Below are positions 23,377 through 23,519 of a stretch of DNA of 64,000 nt, piece by piece. Origin of the DNA: Ignavibacteriota bacterium (GTDB taxonomy: Bacteria; Bacteroidota; Ignavibacteria; UBA10030; UBA6906); contig CAWDEM010000004.1 in assembly GCA_963801355.1 (NCBI GenBank), positions 1,408,001 through 1,472,000 of the forward strand, written 5' to 3'. How positions within the stretch are numbered: position 1 is the first letter of the stretch; every line of letters begins with the position of its first letter. The notes beneath the pieces were generated by a model that worked only from the letters and a program-made list of their open reading frames with translations, ran no database searches and was not told the DNA's origin. The translations under genes and the position numbers were made by a program.

Positions 23377-23409
23377 TGTCGCACTCGTTCAAAGCAAGCC
23401 GTTTTCAAT

Positions 23410-23483
23410 GCTGGCGTAGCTCAGTTGGTTAGAGCACCAGATTGTGGATCTGGGGGTCGATGGTTCGAGTCCATCCGCCAGTA
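23410..23483 (+). tRNA. tRNA-His (GUG), non-canonical acceptor end (no encoded G-1, G1:U72, A73; CCA not encoded)
   Basis: Cloverleaf GCTGGCG-TA-GCTC-AGTTGGTTA-GAGC-A-CCAGA-TTGTGGA-TCTGG-GGGTC-GATGG-TTCGAGT-CCATC-CGCCAGT-A. Confidence 0.96.
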
Positions 23484-23519
23484 CTCCTCCCTCCCATGTC
23501 ATACTTGTAATGATTCCCA

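Follow-up and report, generated by a model that had tools for sequence, protein, structure and literature searches.

Few tRNA identity marks are as conserved as the G at position −1 of tRNA-His (G-1). Its loss has been regarded as a singular event of one alphaproteobacterial clade and has served as a marker in phylogenetics, for instance when SAR11 was placed. The founding papers on the alphaproteobacterial G-1-less tRNA-His and its histidyl-tRNA synthetase (HisRS) are reportedly those by Ardell and Andersson from 2006 and by Wang and colleagues from 2007. Here, we describe a tRNA-His gene without an encoded G-1 (23410–23483, forward strand) and the HisRS gene hisS that follows it (23520–24974, forward strand) in a 64,000-nucleotide stretch of contig CAWDEM010000004.1 from an Ignavibacteriota bacterium, hereinafter the window. 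We consider it very likely that the region 23410–24974 encodes a histidine identity pair that is self-contained and belongs to the G-1-less, Caulobacter kind, housed in a bacterium of the FCB (Fibrobacteres–Chlorobi–Bacteroidetes) group related to Bacteroidota and Ignavibacteria.

The closest described system is that of the alphaproteobacteria. The HisRS of Caulobacter crescentus charges tRNA-His lacking G-1 in vitro by recognising U72, A73 and the anticodon (Yuan et al. 2011, PMC3064791), and another alphaproteobacterial HisRS is described as reading a G-1-less tRNA-His in vivo (PMC7590224). The alphaproteobacterial tRNA-His is described as having a conserved C3:G70 pair (printed as "C3-G71") and a nine-nucleotide D-loop with U20a (PMC3064791). 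On the side of the enzyme, a change of Gln to Gly in motif 2 covaries with the loss of G-1:C73 (PMC3937112), and an insert in the anticodon-binding domain is among the inserts that form the likely basis of anticodon recognition (PMC3064791; PMC3245924). Certain protists, such as Acanthamoeba and Trypanosoma, are likewise reported to combine a tRNA-His devoid of G-1 and an absence of Thg1 with a non-canonical HisRS (PMC3561963, PMC4338351); these systems are eukaryotic and cytoplasmic.

The window locus shares with the system of the RRCH alphaproteobacteria (the C. crescentus type) the absence of G-1, the G1:U72 and A73 of the acceptor end, a 9-nt D-loop and the anticodon loop UUGUGGA. The two enzymes also agree in being of about 480–500 amino acids, in having lost the motif-2 Gln, in possessing a GRxDxSGD insert and an extra element in the anticodon-binding domain, and in lying on the long side of a long/short split of HisRS (hereinafter the long type). 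However, the host of the window pair is a Bacteroidota-related FCB bacterium, its HisRS is only 38–44% identical to the alphaproteobacterial enzymes and falls outside their clade, and its tRNA gene lies 36 nt upstream of hisS, whereas a tRNA-His adjoins none of 46 alphaproteobacterial hisS loci among the matches listed in our scan of named genomes outside the window's own lineage. With the canonical bacterial system, in which a G-1:C73 pair retained by RNase P goes with a bacterial-type HisRS, the window pair has in common the amino acid, the anticodon and the class IIa fold. That system is the one found in six sister families of the same order, but in the window G-1:C73 and G1:C72 are absent, the HisRS is only ~25% identical to its sister-family counterparts, and another residue stands in for the motif-2 Gln. 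A third kind, the short "eukaryote/archaea-like" HisRS (for example, Elizabethkingia 6nhi and Nostoc 3net) typical of other Bacteroidota, is sister to the long type by phylogeny; in contrast to the latter, it lacks both long-type inserts, keeps the motif-2 Gln and goes with a canonical tRNA-His in five of five Bacteroidota genomes.

The published accounts covered here confine the system to the alphaproteobacteria, and a 2023 review of tRNA identity names only α-Proteobacteria and some protists as possessing G-1-less tRNA-His (PMC9976931). In the full-text literature we found no G-1-less tRNA-His or long-type HisRS outside the alphaproteobacteria, a coverage that did not extend to the founding papers and supplements, such that an earlier mention is possible. 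What appears to be new here is the presence of the known alphaproteobacterial system in other phyla, together with variants of it, namely an Asp in place of the Gly, one missing insert and the linkage of the tRNA gene to hisS.

The tRNA-His gene

The acceptor strands GCTGGCG (23410–23416) and CGCCAGT (23476–23482) form a G1:U72 wobble followed by C2:G71; the discriminator is A73 (23483), and the next three nucleotides (23484–23486) are CTC, hence CCA is unencoded. Position −1 (23409) is T, and the gene thus departs on both sides from the canonical bacterial arrangement of an encoded G-1 paired with C73. ARAGORN calls a tRNA-His(GTG) at 23410–23484, and the Rfam family RF00005 matches 23410–23483 with 72.2 bits (E 1.2e-15, gathering score 29), which is far beyond chance. 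The direct reading, ARAGORN and Rfam agree with the initial annotation of this DNA, which had described a tRNA-His without G-1, with U72 and A73 and without CCA. The gene additionally shows A31:U39, the anticodon loop UUGUGGA with its A38, and a D-loop, AGUUGGUUA, which corresponds to the nine-nucleotide form with U20a, a length that is non-discriminating here as the canonical tRNA-His of the same phylum also have nine.

The genome of the window is an assembly of 4.8 Mb in 8 contigs that is rated 100% complete with 0.14% contamination, and the window lies on a contig of 1.66 Mb. Across it, ARAGORN lists 47 tRNAs and a one-piece transfer-messenger RNA (tmRNA), the single tRNA-His being that of the window. 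The initial annotation had raised the prospect of a second, canonical tRNA-His; none was found by standard ARAGORN, by relaxed ARAGORN with a motif scan, or by Rfam on the candidates. Two extra "His" calls of relaxed ARAGORN were rejected because Rfam recognised no tRNA in either at E ≤ 10. The motif scan also brought up the 5′ half of a tRNA-like sequence with the letters CTGTG; this was rejected too, being part of a tRNA-Asn(GUU) that is split by a group I intron.

This tRNA-Asn(GUU) gene lies on contig C8 of the genome (minus strand, ~1895731–1895348), with its anticodon loop interrupted by a ~312-nt intron that matches Rfam RF00028 (86.3 bits, E 1.7e-22). In the local numbering of locus L170, the 5′ exon spans 732–699, the intron 698–387 and the 3′ exon 386–349, with splice points placed from the cloverleaf. 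ARAGORN listed no tRNA-Asn in this genome because the intron interrupts the gene.

The long-type HisRS

The product of hisS is a protein of 484 amino acids that is identified as a long-type, Caulobacter-like HisRS by the TIGR00442 profile (376.7 bits), by alignment and by the trees. It is the sole HisRS over the cut-off in the genome, the other sizeable TIGR00442 match being one HisZ-like gene below it. We aligned 18 sequences, four of the bacterial type from sister families, four of the short type and ten of the long type. The motif-2 loop reads [RK]PQ in all eight bacterial-type and short-type enzymes and KPD, KLD, KPG or RPG in all ten of the long type. In the window HisRS it reads KPD, with Asp118 occupying the place of the Gln of G-1-dependent enzymes. 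This Asp is shared by the family of the window's genome (f1), by a second family of its order (f6), by two further families of its class (f16 and f17) and by Thermoanaerobaculia, and a Gly is found in Vicinamibacteria, Hydrogenedentota and three alphaproteobacteria. Two further elements are confined to the long type in this alignment: a GRxDxSGDxIxGLGL insert, which in the window HisRS is GRIDVSGDKIPGLGL (approximately residues 207–224), and an additional stretch in the anticodon-binding domain at the C terminus (approximately residues 449–470).

By sequence, the nearest solved structures are those of Elizabethkingia (6nhi, 246 bits), Nostoc (3net, 229 bits) and human, with the E. coli and Thermus type being much more distant (~100–113 bits); the PDB set searched has no structure of a long-type HisRS. 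An AlphaFold2 model (mean predicted local distance difference test score 84.9) has the HisRS fold, and a Foldseek search with it returns the human, Nostoc and Elizabethkingia HisRS as nearest (template modelling score 0.73–0.78 for the latter two), such that the ranking by fold is that by sequence; both results concern the fold and not the contacts with tRNA.

Based on these features we propose the following path for histidine identity in this organism. The tRNA-His would be transcribed without a G at −1, and cleavage by RNase P at the normal +1 site would leave a 7-bp acceptor stem with G1·U72 on top and A73. The long-type HisRS, with an Asp for the motif-2 Gln that accompanies G-1:C73 and with its extra element in the anticodon-binding domain, would then most likely read G1:U72, A73 and the GUG anticodon loop, by analogy to the Caulobacter enzyme.

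The host of the pair

The initial annotation had taken the neighbouring genes to be FCB-like rather than alphaproteobacterial, and this is borne out by the genome. The TIGR04183 sorting domain, the C-terminal signal of the type IX secretion system (T9SS), has at least 150 matches over its cut-off in the genome, many of them on the window's contig, as against none in 14 control genomes, Caulobacter among them. The rpoB gene is on the same contig, and among the best 120 relatives of its product (86–96% identity) the eight named to organism are seven Bacteroidota/Bacteroidetes and one Ignavibacteriae. Likewise, the seven organism-named relatives of the HisRS comprise five Bacteroidota/Bacteroidetes, one Sphingobacteriales and one Acidobacteriota. 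Given the T9SS domains and the RpoB relatives, the contig belongs to the FCB group and not to the alphaproteobacteria.

Covariation of tRNA-His and HisRS among relatives

We examined the HisRS of the window's genome and of its 40 closest genomes, most of the relatives being fragmented metagenome bins. A long-type HisRS (60–94% identity) is present in 22 of 25 f1 genomes, the window's own included, and in both f6 genomes. By contrast, it is found in none of 14 genomes from the seven sister families (f2, f3, f4, f5, f7, f8 and f9; together with f6 these are families of the same order), which give only matches of 23–37% identity to a HisRS of ~420–450 amino acids. No full bacterial-type HisRS accompanies the long type in any of the 24 f1 and f6 genomes. 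For the tRNA, a covariance model (R1) was built from 15 tRNA-His genes and run over 151 genomes of the order. At 96 bits or more it has matches in 25 of 32 f1 genomes, four of four f6 genomes and none of 115 others. At ~75–86 bits its matches mix tRNA-His with other tRNAs, and only matches of at least 87 bits are G-1-less tRNA-His; three of the 20 top matches fetched are tRNAs for Pro or Arg, and f3 and the genomes G024 and G143 are therefore without a tRNA-His call.

The initial annotation had proposed a survey of positions −1, 72 and 73 among relatives. Within the class, 35 tRNA-His genes from long-type lineages (28 from f1, four from f6, one from f16 and two from f17) all lack G-1 and all show G1:U72, C2:G71, A73, A31:U39 and A38; the nucleotide at −1 is never G, being T in 25, C in nine and unknown in one that lies at a contig end. 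Pairs 3:70, 5:68 and 6:67 vary with full compensation, and the 1:72 wobble is invariant. In the sister families f2, f4, f5, f7, f8 and f9, all 17 tRNA-His genes (from 20 regions fetched) have G-1, G1:C72 and C73, as do all five from other Bacteroidota families with a short-type HisRS. All 13 tRNA-His genes retrieved outside the class, from 12 genomes with a long-type HisRS, are G-1-less: two Thermoanaerobaculia (with three genes), the uncultured bacteria of loci L058 and L039, a Hydrogenedentota, a Methyloligella, a Caulobacter species and five more Acidobacteriota. Thus, across all lineages, G-1 is missing and G1:U72 and A73 are present in 48 of 48 genes of 47 long-type genomes (position −1 being T in 36, C in 11 and unknown at a contig end in one), and the type of the tRNA covaries perfectly with that of the enzyme over 70 tRNA genes, 48 G-1-less and 22 canonical. 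Since position −1 varies between T and C while 73 is always A, there is no selection for a −1:73 pair.

Partial copies of the G-1-less tRNA-His, 24–39 nt long and 94–100% identical, occur near the full gene or elsewhere in several relatives: G019 (C10:12607–12641 and 8853–8876), G022 (C28:606–631), G016 (C26:19511–19544), G011 (C74:91483–91521) and G012 (C394:11904–11936). Such fragments may have been left behind by duplication or by integration at the tRNA gene. Two f1 genomes have a long-type hisS broken across three reading frames (G004:C3:777333–778786 and G011:C104:1728–2941), which could reflect frameshifts or assembly errors; the tRNA-His adjoining the split gene of G004 is intact.

A locus in a metagenome-assembled genome of Lutibacter sp. 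(L042, contig C33 of G602) has a tRNA-His at 3904–3977 with T at −1 but with G1:C72 and C73. It lies just downstream of a divergent short-type hisS, with a second hisS-like gene ~1.5 kb away, and the product of the former groups with a Paceibacterota enzyme in the 60-row tree described below. Elsewhere, on different contigs, the same genome carries a further hisS and a canonical tRNA-His with G-1 and C73, and L042 may be an accessory or mis-binned locus.

Distribution and phylogeny of the long-type HisRS

The G-1-less system occurs in phyla outside the alphaproteobacteria. Among the matches listed in the scan of named genomes, which took in up to 600 stretches outside the window's own lineage, full-length long-type HisRS are found in Thermoanaerobaculia and Vicinamibacteria (54–56% identity), in Hydrogenedentota (42%) and uncultured bacteria, and in many Rhodobacterales, Hyphomicrobiales and Caulobacterales (38–44%). 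The covariance model yielded no tRNA-His in the Vicinamibacteria genome G525. In a sample of 401 genomes of the window's phylum the long type is present in 11, namely the window's own, six of seven other f1 genomes, the single f6, both f17 and one of eight f16 genomes; in Acidobacteriota it is present in 10 of 251.

Maximum-likelihood trees were computed from 77 rows by a quick method and from 60 rows by a careful one under LG+G4, for which 22 rows, mostly redundant Rhodobacterales and Planctomycetota, were removed and five added. The long/short split is supported at 99 in the former and at 100/98 in the latter. Within the long type, f1 and f6 form a clade (100/94), and f17 with the unnamed row P0123 a separate one (100/99). 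Family f16 is sister (100/99) to an "alpha-like" clade that comprises two uncultured bacteria, some unnamed rows and all alphaproteobacteria, and Acidobacteriota and Hydrogenedentota form further clades. The window HisRS is on the RRCH side of the long/short split but outside the alphaproteobacterial clade. When the tree is rooted on the short type, a root that is assumed, the alphaproteobacterial enzymes are nested in the long-type group.

The initial annotation had suggested that an alternative histidine identity system exists in a distant phylum, by transfer or as an overlooked lineage. The first part is sustained by the matching long-type HisRS next to the tRNA, by searches that found neither a canonical pair nor Thg1 in the genome, and by the canonical pair of six of the seven sister families. 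The lineages with the system also include Acidobacteriota, Hydrogenedentota, f16 and f17. A transfer from crown alphaproteobacteria into the lineage of the window is not supported by the sequences, because its HisRS appears as a separate branch of the wider long-type clade.

By RpoB identity to the window's genome, f6 (71%) stands farther off than f4 (80%), f9 (78%), f2 (77%) and f8 (76–79%), all of which are canonical, and f16 and f17 are at 65–70%. Judged by RpoB, a single marker, the long-type families are not mutually closest, and several transfers or replacements are therefore needed under any reading.

A probable tRNA-His–hisS cassette and the proposed history of the pair

Among the 24 long-type hisS loci of f1 and f6, 12 have a tRNA-His within 1.5 kb, which in 11 of them is upstream on the same strand and mostly 36–140 nt from hisS. 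The same order is seen at loci L036, L037 (with two tandem copies) and L058, and in four of five further Acidobacteriota genomes, where the tRNA-His lies 25–120 nt upstream of hisS. As at the alphaproteobacterial loci mentioned above, it is absent from the bacterial-type hisS of sister families (none of four loci). The recurrence of the tRNA-His–hisS order in three separate HisRS clades suggests that the pair moves as a cassette.

As to history, our proposal is that the pair replaced a bacterial-type HisRS and G-1:C73 tRNA that the sister families still keep, and that it was most likely acquired horizontally. Acquisition as a two-gene tRNA-His–hisS cassette is probable because Acidobacteriota and an uncultured bacterium of the alpha-like HisRS clade show this gene arrangement as well. 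The two kinds of pair are mutually orthogonal, as shown for Caulobacter versus E. coli, and their coexistence during the replacement would therefore have been possible. More broadly, a mobile, self-sufficient (orthogonal) cassette of this kind might have repeatedly overwritten the G-1:C73 identity in at least four bacterial phyla, the lineages in question being several Bacteroidota-related families, Acidobacteriota, Hydrogenedentota and Alphaproteobacteria; this extension we offer tentatively, holding it slightly less probable than its denial.

A number of observations weigh against a transferred pair of the Caulobacter kind. Its independence of G-1 would follow from the covariation and the Caulobacter precedent. 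The window tRNA has U:A at 3:70 in lieu of the C3:G70 of alphaproteobacteria, and across the class this pair is U:A in 18 genes, C:G in 16 and A:U in one, as against the fixed C:G of the latter. The motif-2 residue is Asp and not Gly, and a third insert, which lies just before motif 3 in the alphaproteobacterial and f16 enzymes, is absent from the window HisRS. The fragmentation of most relatives bears on the counts, in that three f1 genomes (G005, G021 and G024) are without a long-type HisRS and seven lack a high-scoring tRNA-His by the covariance model. For the former, a family search returned no more than a HisZ-like match for G005 and for G024 and none at all for G021 (70% complete), and these bins probably miss the hisS contig and are hence uninformative. 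With respect to the cassette, the one remaining tRNA-His of the 12 (in G013 of f1) is divergently oriented, and in f16 and f17 the tRNA-His does not adjoin hisS. The tRNA core (positions 8–65) of the window gene, at 89–91% identity to Thermoanaerobaculia and 79–86% to the canonical genes of its own order, points weakly to co-transfer, the comparison being one of ~58 positions under shared constraint. Finally, the HisRS tree is a polytomy along its backbone, and an approximately unbiased (AU) test with unnamed rows left free does not reject a single clade of the class's long-type HisRS (p = 0.076), a group that was defined after the tree had been seen. An earlier AU test (p = 3e-83) was discarded as it was confounded by row P0123 sitting inside f17.

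Alternative explanations

The most serious alternative is that the long type is ancestral to the class or order and descended vertically, with sister families having kept or regained the bacterial type and the tRNA-His having adapted in place. The AU result just given is compatible with it, as is the clade formed by f1 and f6. Further, fewer changes would have been required of a canonical tRNA-His that already had a 9-nt D-loop in this phylum, and divergence in place was the earlier conclusion for the alphaproteobacterial tRNA (cited in PMC3064791). Nevertheless, the distribution is patchy, with only 11 of 401 genomes of the phylum having the long type, and f6 is further from the window's genome by RpoB than four canonical families. 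Moreover, f16 groups with the alpha-like clade and shares the alpha-type insert with it, and independent adaptation in place does not readily account for the tRNA-His–hisS order shared among three HisRS clades of different phyla. On balance we regard vertical descent as unlikely and prefer horizontal acquisition of the pair.

A Thg1-like 3′–5′ polymerase might instead add G-1 after transcription, as happens in eukaryotes and certain archaea, making the mature tRNA canonical; indeed, A73 together with an unencoded G-1 is described as the eukaryotic arrangement (PMC3245924). However, a search for Thg1-like proteins, which the initial annotation had advised, gave no PF04446 match in the whole of this 100%-complete genome (three candidates scored), with a positive control in Methanosarcina. 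The HisRS is furthermore without the motif-2 Gln that accompanies G-1:C73, and the G1:U72 present without exception in 48 of 48 genes marks identity in the G-1-independent Caulobacter system. We therefore consider such an addition very improbable.

Still less credence attaches to the gene being a spare or non-functional copy, with a canonical tRNA-His and HisRS hidden in an unassembled part. The assembly is in eight contigs and ARAGORN did initially miss a tRNA-Asn, but the completeness is 100% and that miss was due to a group I intron. The Rfam score of the gene and its conservation with compensatory changes across 35 class genomes also speak against a decayed copy, as do the matching long type of the sole HisRS and the want of a full bacterial-type HisRS in 24 f1 and f6 genomes.

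That the contig is alphaproteobacterial, or the locus contaminated or mis-binned, would suit a tRNA type known only from alphaproteobacteria but is scarcely credible for a 1.66-Mb contig with the rpoB of Bacteroidota/Ignavibacteriae relatives and many T9SS-tail genes, in a genome with 0.14% contamination and a one-piece tmRNA (alphaproteobacteria are known to have a two-piece one), and with a HisRS as far from the alphaproteobacterial clade as this one.

Implications of a possibly mobile G-1-less system

These observations bear on the origin and mobility of the G-1-less system. If the same system is indeed present in unrelated phyla, often with its tRNA linked, the loss of G-1 would be no safe synapomorphy, and the source of the alphaproteobacterial HisRS would become testable, as candidate donor-like lineages are now available. 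It would likewise be a natural case of a whole identity system being replaced by a transferred orthogonal synthetase/tRNA pair, and would furnish more naturally orthogonal HisRS/tRNA-His pairs for genetic-code engineering.

Surroundings of the pair and other features

A promoter-like site, TTGCAA-17-TATCAT, is found at 23339–23367 on the forward strand, 43 nt upstream of the tRNA, by a scan with a sigma-70-like consensus, from which FCB promoters may differ; the scan gave three sites versus a mean of 1.0 in shuffled sequences. A consensus scan found no terminator-like site between the tRNA and hisS. The −10-like hexamer is overlapped by a perfect 16-nt palindrome, GCGTATCATGATACGC (23359–23374), situated 36 nt upstream of the tRNA, which may be an operator or a terminator remnant.

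Downstream of hisS, an open reading frame at 24925–26520 on the forward strand codes for the histidine ammonia-lyase HutH (NCBIfam TIGR01225, 670 bits, and NF006871, 685 bits, both over the cut-off). The profile match begins at residue 29 of the frame, and the true start of hutH is probably downstream of 24925. The tRNA-His, hisS and hutH thus lie head to tail on one strand (23410–26520) as a small histidine-related cluster, in which hutH is context and stands outside the identity system. Elsewhere in the genome, a tRNA-Sec(UCA) at C4:1340667–1340765 indicates that the organism probably uses selenocysteine.

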